Positions 20,482 through 24,357 of a stretch of DNA of 64,000 bases are shown here, one piece after another. The notes below the pieces were generated by a model that saw nothing but the letters and a program-made list of their open reading frames with translations, did no database searches and was not told the DNA's origin. Made by a program: the position numbers and the translations under genes. How positions within the stretch are numbered: the stretch's first letter is position 1; the number at the start of each line of letters is the position of its first letter. The stretch comes from a virus (Duplodnaviria; Caudoviricetes): positions 64,001 to 128,000 of IMG/VR virus record IMGVR_UViG_2974799246_000001; one strand, given 5' to 3'.

Positions 20482-20904
20482 TTACTGGGACCTCATGGCA
20501 AACGTAACGGATTCTTTCGATTCGAGCTTAGGACAGCGCCACGTAACGATACACACGTAGGTCTGTTCGTATTGCTCGCTCATTGTACACGCTGTCTGCA
20601 CGTTGGTCACATCATTCGTAAGACCATTAGCTGGGTCTTCGAGCGCAAGGCGCATGTACGTTGCAATCCAGTCGGCTGTAGTCTGGTCGAAAGGTTCAAA
20701 TAGGTATTGATACACGTCAGCACCAAACGACTCACGCCATTTGCGAGACTTTTTGCGAGTACCAATGACCATTAAAATCTTCTGGACAATGCTGTCCATG
20801 TTCTGCACGTTATCGCGCGGTTCAAGTTGAATCCACGCATTGATATCACAATAGACTCGCTCGCTGATAGGAACGTCTATTAGTCTGACTCCGATTCCTG
20901 CCAT
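20482..20904 (-). CDS. Baseplate wedge protein, gp25/gpW-like
   Basis: 140 aa. SIVQKILMVIGTRKKSRKWRESFGADVYQYLFEP is a gp25-type signature. Confidence 0.85.
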   Translation of the reverse strand: MAGIGVRLIDVPISERVYCDINAWIQLEPRDNVQNMDSIVQKILMVIGTRKKSRKWRESFGADVYQYLFEPFDQTTADWIATYMRLALEDPANGLTNDVTNVQTACTMSEQYEQTYVCIVTWRCPKLESKESVTFAMRSQ

Positions 20905-21194
20905 TAGCCAAATCTCACGTTAGAGCTACCGTTAGAAGCTGTGTCACCACAACTGTTTCCATCACCAGCACGTTGAGCGGGCTTGCCGTTAACACGCACA
21001 CTGGAGCTTGATGTTGCTTTACCAACATGCGGAGGTTTCTTAGGCTTCCAGTGTGGTTTATAGGCGTCACCGCTGCGAACGCTTCCCTTGCCGTTGACAA
21101 GCACATTCGTTGATGCCTGTGCTGGGACGACAGGGAAATAACCGCTGTGACCTGTAGACAGATCTGCGCCAAGTCGAATAGCTTTCTGACCCAT
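20904..21194 (-). CDS. PAAR-domain spike tip protein (gp5.4-like)
   Basis: 96 aa. AIRLGAD..GH, STNVLVNGKGSVRSGD, VRVNGKPAQRAGD..SCG. Confidence 0.9.
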   Translation of the reverse strand: MGQKAIRLGADLSTGHSGYFPVVPAQASTNVLVNGKGSVRSGDAYKPHWKPKKPPHVGKATSSSSVRVNGKPAQRAGDGNSCGDTASNGSSNVRFG

Positions 21195-21217
21195 GATTAT
21201 TCTCCTCTGTTAGACAC

Positions 21218-21225
21218 AAATTAGC
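21218..21225 (-). promoter_or_regulatory. Putative late promoter motif GCTAATTT
   Basis: About 24 nt upstream of the PAAR start, just downstream of a terminator. Confidence 0.6.
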
Positions 21226-21240
21226 TTGTTAGGCCGCAGA

Positions 21241-21270
21241 AACAAAAACGGGCAGCCTCATGGCCACCCA
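21241..21270 (-). terminator. Rho-independent terminator closing the 1.25-kb non-coding unit
   Basis: GGGTGGCC-ATGA-GGCTGCCC-GTTTTTGTT. Confidence 0.85.
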
Positions 21271-21521
21271 GTTTCTGTGCTTGGATTTGTGTCGCCCATT
21301 CCCTCACACCCGAAGCGAGTGCCCGACGGCTTTAGCCGATGAGCCGGAATGAATGTCCGAGAGTGACGATACACCTGGTATCGACAGCATGTGACTCTCG
21401 GGCCATGATAGCAATAGACCAAGCATCGCTATTGCCACCAGCGACACTAAGAACAAAAGCATGTTTCGCTCCTCGTGTCTTACTTTAAATAACTACGTTT
21501 GATCAACTGGTACTTTGTTCT

Positions 21522-21549
21522 GCTCGTCGCCCAACATCACTTGAGTATC
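21522..21549 (-). repeat. 28-nt exact direct repeat, copy A (GATACTCAAGTGATGTTGGGCGACGAGC on the minus strand)
   Basis: Identical to 21911-21938. Confidence 0.95.
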
Positions 21550-21910
21550 AGAACGTTTCTCTGTCTTTACCGCCTACGTTGCGGTTATACCGCGCACGAC
21601 ACTCACATATCAAGGGCACTCGGCGGAAAAGGTAAGTTCCGAATGTCCTAACAACATGAGTGAAGCGAAGGAGGTCCCGTATCGGTGATCTGCAGGGGTT
21701 CACGCACTTTTAACATTCGCTTCTTTGTGCATTAAATCTTTCGTGGACTCGAATGCCCTGCTAATCATTCCACTAAGATATTTCACACCCTATTGTGAAC
21801 GGGTCAAGCTATGGCAGCACGTCAGCACGGCAGGCAGCGGACACACTCCATTAAGCATTGTTAAGGGCAATGCTCAACAGGCTGTGAACAGCTTGGTCGG
21901 AATAGGTTTC

Positions 21911-21938
21911 GCTCGTCGCCCAACATCACTTGAGTATC
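21911..21938 (-). repeat. 28-nt exact direct repeat, copy B
   Basis: Identical to 21522-21549; offset 389 nt. Confidence 0.95.
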
Positions 21939-22507
21939 TCGACCTAAACTTTTACTCTCCACACGACTACAAGGAAGAATCGCGTTTCTGTGACCTGCGG
22001 ATGTTTATCACTCTCAGACTCTTGAGCCACTATCTGGAAGCTAACACGTTGAGTCGTCCGCTGGATGACGTGTTAGCTCTCCTCTCCTCGTCGTGCGAAG
22101 GCCAGAGTGGTAGCTGATGGATTGTCATGAAGTCCTGACAGGAGTCATCGCTTCCCAATGCACACAGGGTGAAAGCCTATGCACATCAGGCAGCGTCTGC
22201 TGCGATACTGCTATCCCCTTGAGAGTGGCCATAGCGTTGAGTTTGCGCTTCGCCAGTCTACGTGCCTGGAAGGTATCTGCCGTGCCTATGTCTGCATTCA
22301 GCATGGTTCCTTTGCTGGGCCTTTTGGGCGTCAGCGACAGAGCAGATATTCATCACGTGGGTGCCGGGGTTGTCCTCACGATTACAGAGCGAACTCAAAC
22401 CGGCTGGAGGCCCGTATGCTCAGGAATGCACATACGAGTTTACCAGAAGAACGGCCCCGCTATGGTAGCGTTCTTCCGAGACATACTGATATTACTATCT
22501 GCAATTT

Positions 22508-22517
22508 TTATTTACAG
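22508..22517 (-). promoter_or_regulatory. Putative promoter motif CTGTAAATAA
   Basis: AT-rich site upstream of the candidate ncRNA; the same 10-mer occurs at 53671-53680 upstream of the ligase and at 22787-22796. Confidence 0.5.
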
Positions 22518-22596
22518 ATTTTTCTTAACCTTCGCCCCAACCACAAGAAGCAGGTTTACCGTCACCGTAACCGATTTTAAACAGCATAGTTAGTCC

Positions 22597-24357
22597 TTAG
22601 AACGCTTTACGTTCGATGTTGGAGTAGTACGTGTCATATGGTTCGCTATACAGCTCAGGGCCGCGCTGCGCACGAATGGTCACGTAACCAGTGTGTCGGT
22701 TGAACGCGATGATTTCGACTGTAGGCTGTTTCGGCTTGATGGTCGAATAAATCGGAGCGTTCATGGTTGGTTCGTCTGTCTGAATCTTATTTACAGATTG
22801 CAGAGCAGCACCAGACAGCGTAGGCAGATTGAATCTGATTTCCGCACGTTTCTGGCCGAACGCGATTTTGATTACACCAGCAGGAAGCTCAACGCCGTTC
22901 TGTTTCAGATACGCACCAATGCGACGAGCGATACCAGTCAACTGATCGCGTGTGCGAGGGTCGAATGTACCTTCGAAGCTGATTGCTTCTGCTGGCTGGC
23001 GCACGGACAGATGCAGACCTGTGTTGAAATAGCCTTCGGTCAGCAGGCGCAGCACTTCCTTCACGACTTCTTTCGTGTTGGATTTGATAGCAGCGATTTT
23101 GAGTTCAGGCACGTCAACCTTAATCGGGTCACGCAGTTCGGTCTGGTTGTCCATGTAGCCGAGTGATACGTGTTTCGCTTTGGTGTACGTGTGCTGCAAC
23201 ACACCAGTAGCGCGAATCAATACAGAGCCAGACTTCGATTGATCATACAGTTCGTCGCTGGTGGTTGTGCTAAACAGGTAATAGTCTGTAGGCACTGCCA
23301 TACGATTAACCGCTTCAACTGCTTTCGTCTGTACTTCTTTTACAGTTTTACCGAAGACAACACGACTACGGTTAGGCTGTGCTGCCGAGACAGGGAAGAA
23401 GGCGCCGTATACAACCTGCACGTTCTTCTGAATAGGCTTGGAAGAGTTTACCTTGATACCGCCTTGCAGCGGAGGTAGCTTCACGCCCACCAGCTTACCG
23501 TTAACGATAGCTTTGTTTGCTACAACAGGCTTGAGGCCAGACAGCAGTTTCTGCAACTCAGCGCCATCAAGAATCTTCTCAAGCGGAACAGCAAGGTTCT
23601 GCGGCAGATAGTGTTTCTTGCGGAACGAGTAGATAACTGTGTCTTTCTTGATCTGCAAAGGCGTAGCCATGTTGCGACCAATCTGACCTACAGGCTGGAA
23701 CGTGTTCTTCTTGTCATCCGCAATGGTACCGAATGCTTTCGTGAACTCAGACTGTCCGATGATGTTAGCCACACGCTGGTGACCACGAACGATAAACACG
23801 ATCTTCGGTTCGTCTTTCAGGCGCAGTTCGTAACGGTCACGGTTCAGATAAACCATGCTGTACTTATCGCCTTTCTCCAGCTCAAGGTCATACTCATCGT
23901 TGGCGTCATCAACCACGACTTTCTTACCTTGATACGTTGCGTACTGACGAGCAGCAGACTCGGAGGCAATCTCCATAGCCTTACCAGTATTCGACAGCGC
24001 AACAGCAAAGTCAGTTACAGCAGGCATCAGATCAACAGACGATGCAACCGCGTAGCTGTTACGGCGTTCACCGAGATGCAGATGCACGGCACTTGAAGCA
24101 GACATGAATACAGTGTTACCTGTGTCTTCATGCTTACCTGCAAAGTTCATACCGCTAATGCGTTCGATGATGTTGGCGCTTAACGCAGGAAACGCGATAT
24201 CGCTACCAGCAGTGAAGTCAAAAATCTCACCGTGACGCCATGCGTATGCCACGTTGTTCGAGCTAAGACCGACAAACGCATCGCCGATCTGCTTAACAGT
24301 CATCGGCATGATACTCAAGTCACGAATGACCGAGTTTTGCTTTTGAATAAGATTCAT
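22597..24357 (-). CDS. Hypothetical protein, probable internal head protein
   Basis: 586 aa. Several S-x-S/A-x-S motifs in the N-terminal part, followed by a domain shared with three other genes in the window. Confidence 0.7.
   Translation of the reverse strand: MNLIQKQNSVIRDLSIMPMTVKQIGDAFVGLSSNNVAYAWRHGEIFDFTAGSDIAFPALSANIIERISGMNFAGKHEDTGNTVFMSASSAVHLHLGERRNSYAVASSVDLMPAVTDFAVALSNTGKAMEIASESAARQYATYQGKKVVVDDANDEYDLELEKGDKYSMVYLNRDRYELRLKDEPKIVFIVRGHQRVANIIGQSEFTKAFGTIADDKKNTFQPVGQIGRNMATPLQIKKDTVIYSFRKKHYLPQNLAVPLEKILDGAELQKLLSGLKPVVANKAIVNGKLVGVKLPPLQGGIKVNSSKPIQKNVQVVYGAFFPVSAAQPNRSRVVFGKTVKEVQTKAVEAVNRMAVPTDYYLFSTTTSDELYDQSKSGSVLIRATGVLQHTYTKAKHVSLGYMDNQTELRDPIKVDVPELKIAAIKSNTKEVVKEVLRLLTEGYFNTGLHLSVRQPAEAISFEGTFDPRTRDQLTGIARRIGAYLKQNGVELPAGVIKIAFGQKRAEIRFNLPTLSGAALQSVNKIQTDEPTMNAPIYSTIKPKQPTVEIIAFNRHTGYVTIRAQRGPELYSEPYDTYYSNIERKAF

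Follow-up and report, generated by a model that had tools for sequence, protein, structure and literature searches.

Very large structured non-coding RNAs are rare in bacteria and phages; to our knowledge, only a few have been described, and a settled function has been assigned to none of them. Smaller RNAs of phages and bacteria offer further points of comparison. The pRNA of phage phi29, ~170 nt in length, is transcribed from an early promoter, contains loop-loop pseudoknots and oligomerises via intermolecular loops. ToxI-type units, which are known in Pectobacterium and its phages, are repeats of ~34–36 nt in tandem, and the peptide encoded by RNAIII is small and hydrophobic. tRNA genes are frequent near GOLLD and ROOL. 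Both of these RNAs are associated with phages and assemble into homo-oligomers (bioRxiv 10.1101/2024.12.08.627333).

Here, we focus on a locus in an Alexandravirus, an Erwinia jumbo phage with a genome of 265 kb which is ~99% identical to pEa_SNUABM_16/28; the window is the whole stretch of 64,000 nucleotides of this genome that was analysed. A preliminary description had proposed that the minus strand encodes a large structured RNA equipped with a promoter and a terminator of its own, and this proposal is supported by both covariation and sequence signals. On comparative sequence evidence, the interval 21240–22502 (minus strand) is shown to be a genuine, evolutionarily maintained RNA gene of the Erwinia/Dickeya jumbo-phage clade. 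The predicted RNA is ~1.25 kb long, heavily base-paired and previously undescribed. At ~1.26 kb for the whole predicted transcript, it would be longer than GOLLD, ROOL and OLE, as had been suggested, and would exceed the other very large bacterial and phage RNAs known to us.

Locus, covariation and transcription unit

The interval 21195–22596 is the sole gap among the minus-strand genes of the 64 kb, as had been noticed at the outset, where a gap means 250 nt or more free of minus-strand ORFs of 80 aa or longer. On one side lies a PAAR tail-tip gene, which is complete (96 aa, full PAAR and PHROG match), and on the other a gene for a 586-aa protein, likewise complete, with a full-length PHROG match and KMPT-N as the sole domain recognised. 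A Foldseek search of the PDB with the AlphaFold model of this protein (mean pLDDT 81) gave no match at E <= 0.001; weak YajQ-like rows were observed. The gap is found at the same position in all 32 Alexandravirus records, in Sasquatchvirus Y3 and Snuvirus, and in five uncultured lineages, and is syntenic across 18 phage lineages of 46–93% nucleotide identity; the clade which keeps the RNA is that of the Erwinia/Dickeya jumbo phages. Searching IMG/VR and JGI metagenomes with the promoter block for additional diversity returned near-duplicates of known phages only.

The evidence for a structured RNA is covariation, not folding energy. In 150-nt windows compared with dinucleotide shuffles, the folding-energy excess has a mean z of -0.84 inside the interval versus -0.63 in the flanking genes (p = 0.27), and the initial impression of more folding than expected by chance finds no support in energy. 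Compensatory change among homologues, which had been suggested as a check, gives a clear answer: 310 consensus pairs are predicted, 137 with compensatory double changes, and a second alignment fold yields 297 pairs, 128 of them compensatory, versus 14–26 compensatory pairs in the flanking coding alignments from the same phages, which served as controls. When the fold was derived from four phages and tested on nine, 73% of the pairs formed where both sides were new, as against 20–52% in slid controls and 26–30% in coding controls. In five lineages unseen during fold derivation, 85.7% of cells are paired versus 51–58% in slid controls. The minus strand, on which the RNA had been placed originally, is favoured both by the RNAalifold consensus energy (-289 vs -175 on the plus strand) and by the one-sided changes, 35% of which still pair on the minus strand vs 20% on the plus strand, as G-U pairs predict. 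Ten helices had been named beforehand; seven are kept with compensatory changes among 18 sequences, to which the percentages given for these helices below refer, and two are without support. For so small a clade, the covariation support is unusually strong.

The unit is probably transcribed as one RNA from a phage promoter and would end at a single intrinsic terminator. The predicted transcript (21240..22502, minus strand, ~1.26 kb) has a promoter motif at its 5' end and one terminator, with none internal. A block of 33 nt at 22488..22520 (minus strand), which is nearly invariant across three genera, combines the promoter block AATCTGTAAATA with the invariant transcript start AAAAUUGCAGAUAGUAAUAUC; within it, the motif TCTGTAAATA is present at 22509–22518 on the minus strand, in agreement with the claim that the RNA has a promoter of its own, and transcription would start near 22502. 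The 265-kb genome has 28 occurrences of CTGTAAATA, most of them 17–60 nt before a start codon, and the motif precedes the genes for DNA ligase, DNA polymerase, sliding clamp, clamp loader and primase, as well as those for SbcD, a methyltransferase and the phage sigma factor; no occurrence in the genome precedes a virion gene. By these neighbours, the putative phage promoter CTGTAAATA of the RNA is of the replication-gene class, not of the virion-gene class. A promoter of this class points to early or middle infection, and the RNA would thus be made before the products of the adjacent baseplate genes. The intrinsic terminator (21239..21275, minus strand) consists of a GC-rich stem followed by UUUUUGUUUC; the scan match at 21270–21249 plus U-tract is the only intrinsic terminator on the minus strand in the region, again as proposed, and its 13-bp stem is kept in 13 of 13 sequences, with two double and five one-sided changes. 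Just downstream of it and outside the RNA, a second-class promoter motif, GCTAATTT (21218..21225, minus strand), lies 20 nt before the PAAR start. It has 11 minus-strand sites in the genome vs ~4 expected, five of those in the window lying 20–35 nt before start codons, and is invariant in all relatives; the PAAR gene carries this motif of its own, unlike the RNA with its CTGTAAATA.

A search of Rfam had been proposed as a check on novelty, and none of the 4227 families of Rfam 15 matches anywhere in the 64-kb window at gathering thresholds by cmscan; at E up to 10 on 21000–22800, a single chance-level C/D-box row is returned. The GOLLD, ROOL and OLE models match neither at gathering nor at E up to 10 on 21000–22800, and neither Rfam nor ARAGORN gives a match to RNase P, tmRNA, 6S or other housekeeping RNAs, ARAGORN finding no tRNA or tmRNA within the window. 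This agrees with the original reading, in which no hallmarks of tRNA, tmRNA, RNase P or group I/II introns were recognised. A literature search found no paper on this RNA. Several specific candidates were rejected. For a group I/II intron, there is no Rfam core match at E up to 10, and the PAAR and 586-aa genes are both complete. For an archaeal C/D-box sRNA, a conserved box C' (UGAUGA) and box D' (CUGA) and a score above gathering were asked for; sR17 scores 15.7 bits on copy B of the 28-nt element described below, versus a gathering score of 36 (E = 1.2), and CUGA stands in copy B of the window, but copy A reads GAGA at this place and the relatives read UUGA or UCGA. For a ToxI-like array, Tandem Repeats Finder gives only a trivial 8-nt repeat, and the genes beside the RNA encode the PAAR and KMPT-N proteins, with no toxin gene adjacent. 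For a CsrA-type sponge, 18 GGA were observed vs 22.9 +/- 4.2 in shuffles, and GGA stands in two of 30 loops.

Domains, modules and the 3' tail

Covariation shows the predicted RNA to be built from a 5' domain, two homologous pseudoknotted modules (~200–280 nt), a few further hairpins that flank or separate the modules, and a 3' tail that is itself structured; the body of ~1.0 kb contains ~45 predicted helices. The earlier reading was right that the large RNA is structured and had missed the two modules, each of which holds a 28-nt element. All features below are on the minus strand.

At the 5' end, hairpin H1 (22444..22478) has a variable stem and a conserved loop, UAGCGGG. Its stem, named originally as 22444–53/22469–78, forms in each of 11 Alexandravirus sequences folded singly, although the stem sequences differ. 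Hairpin H2 (22411..22438) has 8 bp (22411–18/22431–38; 80% of cells paired), seven of which carry compensatory changes on both sides. The 5' domain D1 (22220..22411) is a conserved core of seven helices, including one of 20 bp (22358–22337/22285–22260); within it, the previously named helix 22274–80/22342–48 is paired in 92% of cells with seven double-changed pairs. In the D1 covariance model R1 on alignment A4, 97.8% of cells are paired and 23 of 48 pairs have changed on both sides, a covariation that none of 500 shuffles reaches and for which slid controls give 0–6. R1 scores 105–160 bits in five lineages outside its training set and has no match in Yoloswag, pEa_SNUABM_5, JA11, JA29, fHe-Yen9-02 or L062. 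Since D1 is undetectable in these more distant genera, the conserved unit may be the module instead of the whole 1.25 kb. D1 was also considered as a third module copy and rejected; it has the UAGCGGG loop and an AACCCCGGCAC motif in common with the modules, but profile searches with modules 2 and 3 find nothing there. Downstream of D1 are two hairpins (22129..22189), the first of which (stem CUGAUG.../...CAUUGG, apical loop GGCUUUCACCC) has 12 bp with four double changes and a counterpart resembling it in Yoloswag (nhmmer, E = 0.002). A long-range helix of 7 bp (22216–22210/21892–21886), with one double change, three one-sided changes and three of 91 cells unpaired, is predicted with moderate confidence to enclose the central domain. 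It is followed by a hairpin with the invariant loop CCCUUAA (21843..21885), of 16 bp with eight double changes; in it, the helix 21851–60/21868–77 recognised earlier is paired in 96% of cells, with eight double-changed pairs.

Modules 2 (21900..22092) and 3 (21515..21792) match in the order of their parts and in their motifs, with significant sequence similarity at the 28-nt element only. Module 2 comprises a long hairpin (22079–22038, AGCGGA loop), a small hairpin, the strand ACAUCCGCAGGUC, another hairpin and the hairpin of element copy A. All 10 pairs of the stem 22079–22070/22047–22038 have changed on both sides, and the helix 22039–49/22068–78 of the preliminary description is paired in 91% of cells with 10 double-changed pairs. 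The loop pairs downstream to form pseudoknot PK2, 22061–22057 (GCGGA) with 22001–21997 (UCCGC), which was found blind by the covariation scan; its five pairs are 100% paired in 17 sequences, and two of them are double-changed (AU:14/GC:3 and GC:16/AU:1). A local 3-bp pairing, UCC/GGA, may be an alternative in this region. Module 3 has the corresponding hairpins 21779–21736 (AGCAGGG loop) and 21730–21704, the strand ACCCCUGCAGAUC, a large hairpin (21667–21595) and the hairpin of element copy B; in alignment A5, 91% of cells are paired and 12 of 25 pairs are double-changed, which 0 of 500 shuffles reach. The long hairpin seen before at 21600–21662 is kept with compensatory changes; the proposed helix 21662–69/21716–23 is not supported, with 71% pairing and one double change, the alignment fold preferring 21667–54/21608–595. 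Here, the loop pairing forms pseudoknot PK3, 21761–21756 (GCAGGG) with 21697–21692 (CCCUGC), which covaries through four sequence versions (GCAGGG/CCCUGC, GCGGU/ACCGC, GCGGG/CCCGC and GCUGGUG/CACCAGC), with pair counts of GC:9 AU:4 UA:1 and GC:10 UA:4.

Copy A of the 28-nt element (GAUACUCAAGUGAUGUUGGGCGACGAGC, 21911..21938) lies in the hairpin 21947–21902, whose closing stem has 9 bp with eight double changes, and is nearly invariant in Alexandravirus. Copy B (21522..21549), its exact repeat at a distance of 389 nt, lies in the hairpin 21554–21517, with a closing stem of 6 bp and five double changes, and is more variable between phages than copy A. The signature YWAGCNNN ... ACnNNNGCAG with the element hairpin at conserved spacing is found in Yoloswag, pEa_SNUABM_5, fHe-Yen9-02 and an uncultured relative, among which the pseudoknot sequences differ; in JA11 and JA29, both signature and element are present at a less regular spacing. 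In IMG/VR, both element variants are confined to the jumbo-phage clade, with one or two per genome, and module copy number differs between genera. The covariation scan for loop-loop contacts found none beyond the two local pseudoknots. A candidate receptor for the element loop, 22313–22330, varies from C to U only, with no compensation from the invariant loop, and a local hairpin explains this pattern equally well.

The 3' tail contains a small ORF of 52 aa (MLLFLVSLVAIAMLG..., 21304..21462), predicted to encode a single-pass membrane peptide. It is open in every sequence covering the region (47–57 aa), its indels (+3, -3, -15) keep the frame, and it has homologues in Yoloswag gp109 and pEa_SNUABM_5 gp115; the peptide matches no Pfam or PHROG family. 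In the membrane segment, 11, 5 and 9 variable columns fall at codon positions 1, 2 and 3, a signal only suggestive of coding. A Shine-Dalgarno hairpin (21443..21479; 11 bp, one double and five one-sided changes) buries AGGAG and holds the AUG in its loop, AGGAGC standing 5–6 nt before the ATG in 11 of 13 original sequences. The C-terminal half of the ORF overlaps covarying hairpins of the 3' domain (21279..21440), which consists of the hairpins 21440–21406 and 21401–21357 and a three-way junction (21350–21298) whose helices have three, four and three double-changed pairs. Two helices named here at first, 21406–17/21429–40 (89% of cells paired, five double-changed pairs) and 21357–64/21394–401 (98%, six), hold up; a third, 21289–95/21441–47, which was to close a multibranch domain, is weak at 78% paired. 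An invariant helix, GCUUGG/CCAAGC (21424–19/21284–79), may enclose part of the domain; it overlaps the 21440–21406 hairpin, and hence the two are alternatives. The stop codon of the ORF itself lies within a compensatory change, from CUCGC/GUGAG to CUUGC/GUAAG. Thus, with this conserved ORF in its last ~160 nt, the unit is not wholly non-coding, and it would be either an RNA of dual function or a structured RNA with a small gene attached. As expected of a dual-function RNA, the conserved ORF lies within a conserved, predicted structured transcript and overlaps its covarying hairpins. The peptide genes of Yoloswag and pEa_SNUABM_5 are each preceded, at ~25 nt, by a separate copy of the promoter, and three or more small genes lie between them and the module RNA.

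Proposed function and alternative explanations

In the reading we prefer, with chances we would put at even at best, the RNA body would be a trans-acting scaffold or decoy, rigid and multivalent, in the replication phase of infection, and the tail would also serve as the mRNA of the membrane peptide, with its translation gated. Each pseudoknotted module would position one copy of the invariant 28-nt element as a putative binding site; with one copy per module, a single partner, most likely a phage or host protein, would be bound in two copies or as a dimer while replication is under way. The element could instead serve RNA-RNA tertiary contacts or self-assembly.

A broader possibility, which we regard as doubtful, is that of a kilobase RNA machine, a new class in this jumbo-phage lineage, in which the chain of pseudoknotted modules would itself perform a biochemical task in genome replication; it might, for instance, organise or sequester a factor of replication, transcription or defence, or be catalytic. 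If this is true, no larger functional RNA, ribosomal RNAs and introns aside, would be known from a bacterial virus, and the module copy number (1–3) would be tuned between genera. The replication-class promoter places a large RNA where jumbo-phage host takeover and defence evasion are decided. The modular layout, a pseudoknot plus a displayed element, gives clear handles for mutation, and because the phages are cultivable on a laboratory-tractable host, transcript mapping, pull-downs, cryo-EM and deletion phenotypes are feasible.

A scaffold or decoy acting in trans has to be weighed against a cis-acting leader, in which the structured kilobase controls only the translation of the small membrane peptide, sensing a signal or setting the timing and then opening the ribosome-binding-site hairpin; the peptide might then serve superinfection exclusion or lysis timing. 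The conservation of the ORF in every relative covering the region, its position in one predicted unit with the structured part, no terminator separating them, and the pairing of the Shine-Dalgarno sequence in a conserved hairpin are all in keeping with a leader. Nevertheless, the separate promoter and the intervening genes in Yoloswag and pEa_SNUABM_5 indicate that the RNA and peptide parts work apart, and a leader of ~1 kb with duplicated modules would far exceed any leader known to us, so that we consider this explanation unlikely. Also quite unlikely is an RNA-only architecture like that of GOLLD and ROOL, in which modules and invariant loops would contact one another, within or between molecules, and so form a large, defined particle (a cage, ring or lattice) that needs no protein. 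Such a particle would fit the RNA's size, its pseudoknots, its repeated units and its wealth of conserved loops, as well as the precedent of these phage-associated RNAs, which form homo-oligomers (bioRxiv 10.1101/2024.12.08.627333). Against it are the lack of similarity to the GOLLD or ROOL Rfam model, the lack of tRNA genes in the window and of any covarying loop-loop contact besides the two local pseudoknots, and the uncompensated C-to-U variation of the proposed element-loop receptor.

The highly conserved pseudoknotted cores with invariant unpaired nucleotides, together with a module copy number that varies between genera, might also suggest a catalytic RNA, or a precursor cut into smaller stable RNAs, one per module. 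We find this improbable: searches at E up to 10 match no family of ribozymes or introns, a conserved motif for a cleavage site was not recognised, and both flanking genes are intact, which leaves no exons to join. Very improbable is the view that there is no functional RNA and that the interval acts as DNA, whether as an origin of replication, a packaging site or a regulatory region, or is what is left of decayed genes. In its favour, the promoter belongs to the replication class, the kind used by T4 origins, and more distant relatives carry small ORFs in the interval; yet pairing-preserving compensatory changes, including G-U pairs on one strand only, are the signature of selection at the RNA level, and no long ORF is conserved in any frame. 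A replication origin in particular was rejected, as the cumulative GC skew has its extremes at 56 and 190 kb (strand-switch points), away from the locus, and no GC-skew feature at the locus itself. Finally, we give next to no credence to the plus-strand or other annotated ORFs (e.g., gp118 and gp119 of pEa_SNUABM_16) as real protein genes. Plus-strand ORFs of 130–158 aa do exist in the window and are annotated in one record, but most relatives are without such annotation, gene callers find nothing in the uncultured contigs, and every long frame is interrupted by numerous indels whose lengths are not divisible by three. Across the sequences, the smallest frame free of stops is <=165 nt, and no long conserved ORF was found on either strand. 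The hypothetical proteins annotated inside the RNA in several GenBank records are very probably spurious.

Comparison with known systems

The preferred reading, a multivalent scaffold or decoy with a gated peptide message, has features in common with several known RNAs. As in the CsrB/RsmB sponges, binding sites would be repeated and displayed on hairpins along one long molecule, although there are only two copies of the 28-nt element here instead of many GGA loops, and GGA is not enriched. Like ToxI and phage pseudo-ToxI, the RNA has repeated pseudoknotted units; unlike them, its modules measure 200–280 nt, form no tandem array and have no adjacent toxin gene. With the pRNA of phi29 it shares the nature of a phage-encoded structural RNA, but its pseudoknots are intramolecular and nothing ties it to packaging. 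In carrying a short peptide within a structured RNA of regulatory type, it is similar to RNAIII of Staphylococcus, which encodes delta-haemolysin, and to SgrS/SgrT; however, there is no relation in sequence or structure, the jumbo-phage RNA is 2–5 times longer and has no known antisense target, and Yoloswag-type phages are predicted to transcribe the peptide gene separately. GOLLD and ROOL are likewise very large, intricately folded phage-carried RNAs with many covarying helices and pseudoknots, and the jumbo-phage RNA resembles them also in having its own predicted transcription unit. It differs from them in being without nearby tRNA genes or a match to their Rfam models, in carrying a small ORF, in its confinement to one clade of Enterobacterales jumbo phages, and in joining tandem homologous modules in one chain.

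The gene-free interval and its surroundings

The source genome, 265 kb long, is that of an Erwinia jumbo phage in the genus Alexandravirus, and pEa_SNUABM_16, 18 and 28 share 98.7–98.9% identity with the window across the RNA region. Measured against minus-strand ORFs of at least 80 aa, the interval 21195–22596 is indeed, as the preliminary description had claimed, the only gap of at least 250 nt in the 64 kb. It is flanked on the minus strand by a PAAR tail-tip gene (20904–21194) and, on the other side, by a 586-aa gene with a KMPT-N domain (22597–24357). The impression that no known RNA is present also held, since an Rfam search returned no match at gathering thresholds (a single chance-level row at E up to 10), and no tRNA or tmRNA was found.

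The 586-aa neighbour (window 22600–24357; KMPT-N domain at residues 138–200) is conserved wherever the RNA is present. AlphaFold gives a confident model (mean pLDDT 81); compared with PDB folds, it has no match at E ≤ 0.001 and weak YajQ-like rows only, and domain and fold searches of this protein yielded no clue to function. The promoter motif occurs a second time, as AATCTGTAAATAA, within the 3' end of the neighbour's gene (22788–22797, minus strand), and 23 nt past it lies an in-frame ATG from which the C-terminal 55 aa would be made on their own. The gene's stop is separated from the RNA promoter by an insertion of ~70 nt (22523–22596), which holds a 20-aa mini-ORF with a GEG-stop end and is restricted to the window's own subclade; two other relatives, L057 and L060, carry a short insert resembling it. 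An extra ORF of ~41 aa, which the window lacks, occurs between the RNA terminator and PAAR in AD1, vB_Ea_2910A, pEa_SNUABM_3 and Yoloswag (relatives' sequences L003 1372–1496, L006 1387–1507, L011 1387–1509 and L015 6787–6916).

Comparative evidence for a minus-strand RNA

A gap of ~1.3 kb between the same two genes is found in all 32 of 32 Alexandravirus records, with identities of 74–99% by BLAST and 68–93% between lineages in the alignment. The same gap occurs in Sasquatchvirus Y3 and Snuvirus pEa_SNUABM_7 (53–60% identity), as well as in five uncultured lineages (46–78%) found via homologues of the 586-aa protein. Conservation is a mosaic, in which variable, indel-rich stems alternate with nearly invariant blocks.

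More folding than expected by chance had been proposed, and this was not borne out: the mean z-score of 150-nt windows was -0.84 inside and -0.63 in flanking genes (p = 0.27). The case for an RNA therefore rests on comparative evidence, which is strong. RNAalifold predicted 310 pairs from 13 sequences on the minus strand, 137 of them with pair-keeping changes on both sides, as against 86 in the antisense alignment and 14–26 in alignments of two flanking coding regions of these phages; the consensus energies were -289, -175 and, for controls, -98 to -141. A second alignment fold gave 297 pairs, 128 of them compensatory. As a guard against circularity, a fold derived from four phages was scored on the other nine, and where both bases were new 73% still paired, compared with 20–52% in slid controls and 26–30% in coding controls. 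When the 13-sequence fold was applied to the five later-fetched lineages, 85.7% of cells paired (slid controls, 51–58%), and pairing was kept in 41 of 59 doubly novel cells. The argument from G-U pairs for the strand proved sound: one-sided changes remain paired in 35% of cases on the minus strand and 20% on the plus strand, which fixes the RNA as minus-strand.

For the 5' domain (22220–22411), a covariance model gave 97.8% pairing, with both partners changed in 23 of 48 pairs, a degree of covariation reached by none of 500 shuffles, and it matched the five new lineages at 105–160 bits. Seven of the ten helices originally listed are backed by covariation, while 21662–69/21716–23 is unsupported and 21289–95/21441–47 weak; helix 22444–53/22469–78 forms in 11 of 11 Alexandravirus sequences, each folded alone.

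Pseudoknotted modules, the repeated element and the limits of the family

A blind search for non-nested pairs that stack and covary brought out two equivalent pseudoknots. In module 3 (21515–21792), GCAGGG in the long-hairpin loop (21761–21756) pairs with CCCUGC (21697–21692), and the covarying versions in relatives are GCGGU/ACCGC, GCGGG/CCCGC and GCUGGUG/CACCAGC. In module 2 (21900–22092), GCGGA (22061–22057) pairs with UCCGC (22001–21997), and pairing reaches 100% across 17 sequences; other versions are GCGGG/CCCGC and GCAGG/CCUGC, and a 3-bp local pairing is a possible alternative here. Both modules follow one order of parts: a long hairpin with the loop YWAGCNNN, a small hairpin, AGUGnnnAAC followed by ACnNNNGCAG(A/G)YC, at least one further hairpin, and a 28-nt element displayed by a hairpin with a covarying stem. 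This element is an exact repeat (21911–21938 and 21522–21549). Profile searches link the modules significantly at the element only (E about 1e-8) and gave no link from them to the 5' domain or tail, so two clear module copies are counted.

The Snuvirus-type RNAs L013 and L059 have an inserted hairpin, GAGGCUUUCACCCUC, aligned between window 22015 and 22011, which repeats the loop motif GGCUUUCACCC of window hairpin 22189–22155, a loop also present in Yoloswag. In the 3' domain, GCAAU (21416–21412) is the complement of the invariant 5' end AUUGC (22500–22496), and G-U pairs would preserve the match in every variant of the relatives (GCGAU, GUAAU, GCAGU, 5' AUUGU); the two ends could be in contact, or the match may be chance, given 5 bp and no double change.

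The family extends to phages in which the RNA itself can no longer be aligned. The neighbouring protein is 42–51% identical in Yoloswag, pEa_SNUABM_5, Dickeya JA11 and JA29, Yersinia fHe-Yen9-02 and one uncultured relative, and in each of them the same promoter past the 586-aa gene opens a gene-free stretch of 600–1300 nt with the same pseudoknot signature, yet other pairing sequences. All of these except JA11 and JA29 carry a variant of the element, AGACCUAUCUCAGUGGGGAGACGGG, whose closing stems covary and which stands at conserved spacing past the signature (one or two per phage); JA11 and JA29 have both signature and element, with less regular spacing. Y3 has the variant AGACCUAUCUCAGUGGGGAGACGGG at the copy A position (that of 21911–21938), which ties the two element variants together, and among 2.9 million IMG/VR contigs both are confined to the clade. 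The gap is absent in L061, the most distant 586-aa homologue (31% protein identity), where the RNA family may reach its outer limit; the gene order of L061 differs, with an Rrf2-family regulator next, on the other strand.

Predicted transcription, the embedded peptide gene and possible function

The promoter and terminator proposed to flank the RNA are both present, as TCTGTAAATA at 22509–22518 and as the sole minus-strand terminator (21270–21249) with its U-tract. The motif CTGTAAATA is found 28 times across the genome, where by our estimate about 2 would be expected. Recognisable genes past it encode DNA ligase, DNA polymerase subunits, sliding clamp, clamp loader, primase, SbcD, an HNH endonuclease, a methyltransferase, a phosphatase and the phage sigma factor, and never, among sites with a recognisable downstream gene, a virion protein. 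Start codons as near as 17 nt past the motif place the start of transcription a few bases after TAAATA, presumably near 22502, and the 21 nt that follow are nearly invariant across three genera. One promoter and a sole terminator predict a single RNA of about 1.26 kb that is produced together with the replication genes, and we infer its expression in the replication phase. Right after the terminator and before PAAR lies GCTAATTT (21218–21225, minus strand), a motif also present at 1276, 14429, 26887 and 55583, each time 20–35 nt upstream of a minus-strand start codon (11 minus-strand genome sites, about 4 expected). This resembles another promoter class, distinct from the replication-gene class, and probably a late one.

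The RNA had been called non-coding. This stands insofar as no conserved long ORF exists in the gap on either strand, but not for a conserved small ORF of 52 aa (MLLFLVSLVAIAMLG..., 21304–21462, minus strand). Its frame is open in every relative covering the region (47–57 aa), AGGAGC precedes the ATG by 5–6 nt in 11 of the 13 original sequences, and all indels seen keep the frame (+3, -3, -15). Its homologues are annotated small genes, Yoloswag gp109 and pEa_SNUABM_5 gp115, whose peptides are still hydrophobic despite nucleotide differences. In the membrane segment, variable columns are fewest at codon position 2 (5, vs 11 and 9), a pattern that is suggestive only. The C-terminal half changes by RNA-compensatory substitutions, as in HSLRV-stop to HLHRA-stop, where the stop codon itself is a pairing partner, and the Shine-Dalgarno sequence is paired within a conserved hairpin.

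On comparative grounds, we regard it as established that this is a conserved RNA, modular and pseudoknotted, which displays an invariant element and has a peptide gene at the same locus. Our preferred reading of its function is held tentatively, at a little under even chances: the body would act in trans as a scaffold or decoy, each rigid module offering a protein partner a single copy of the element, and the tail would be a gated message for the membrane peptide. The likeliest rival is a cis-acting leader; however, Yoloswag-type phages have a separate promoter copy for the peptide gene, and other small genes lie between that gene and the module RNA, an arrangement that speaks against the RNA body serving solely as a leader for the peptide. 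An assembly built of RNA alone, as in GOLLD or ROOL, comes second, a ribozyme or processed precursor third, and an element acting at the DNA level fourth. Real plus-strand genes come last: taken across relatives, the smallest stop-free frame is at most 165 nt in every case, indels are frequent and of any length, and the hypothetical proteins annotated within the RNA body in GenBank/RefSeq records of relatives (L001, NC_061441.1, 2381–2656 and 2478–2945; L004 2190–2351; L008 2362–2511; L009 2757–2900), which differ by record, on either strand and in non-homologous places, are very probably spurious gene calls. Sponge-type and antitoxin-type models were rejected, as their defining features failed.

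No published description of this RNA was found in the literature, and Rfam is without a matching family. We rate it as a class of its own, new within a kind already known, the large ornate RNAs of phages, among which it is distinguished by its length above 1 kb, its tandem homologous modules and its embedded peptide gene.
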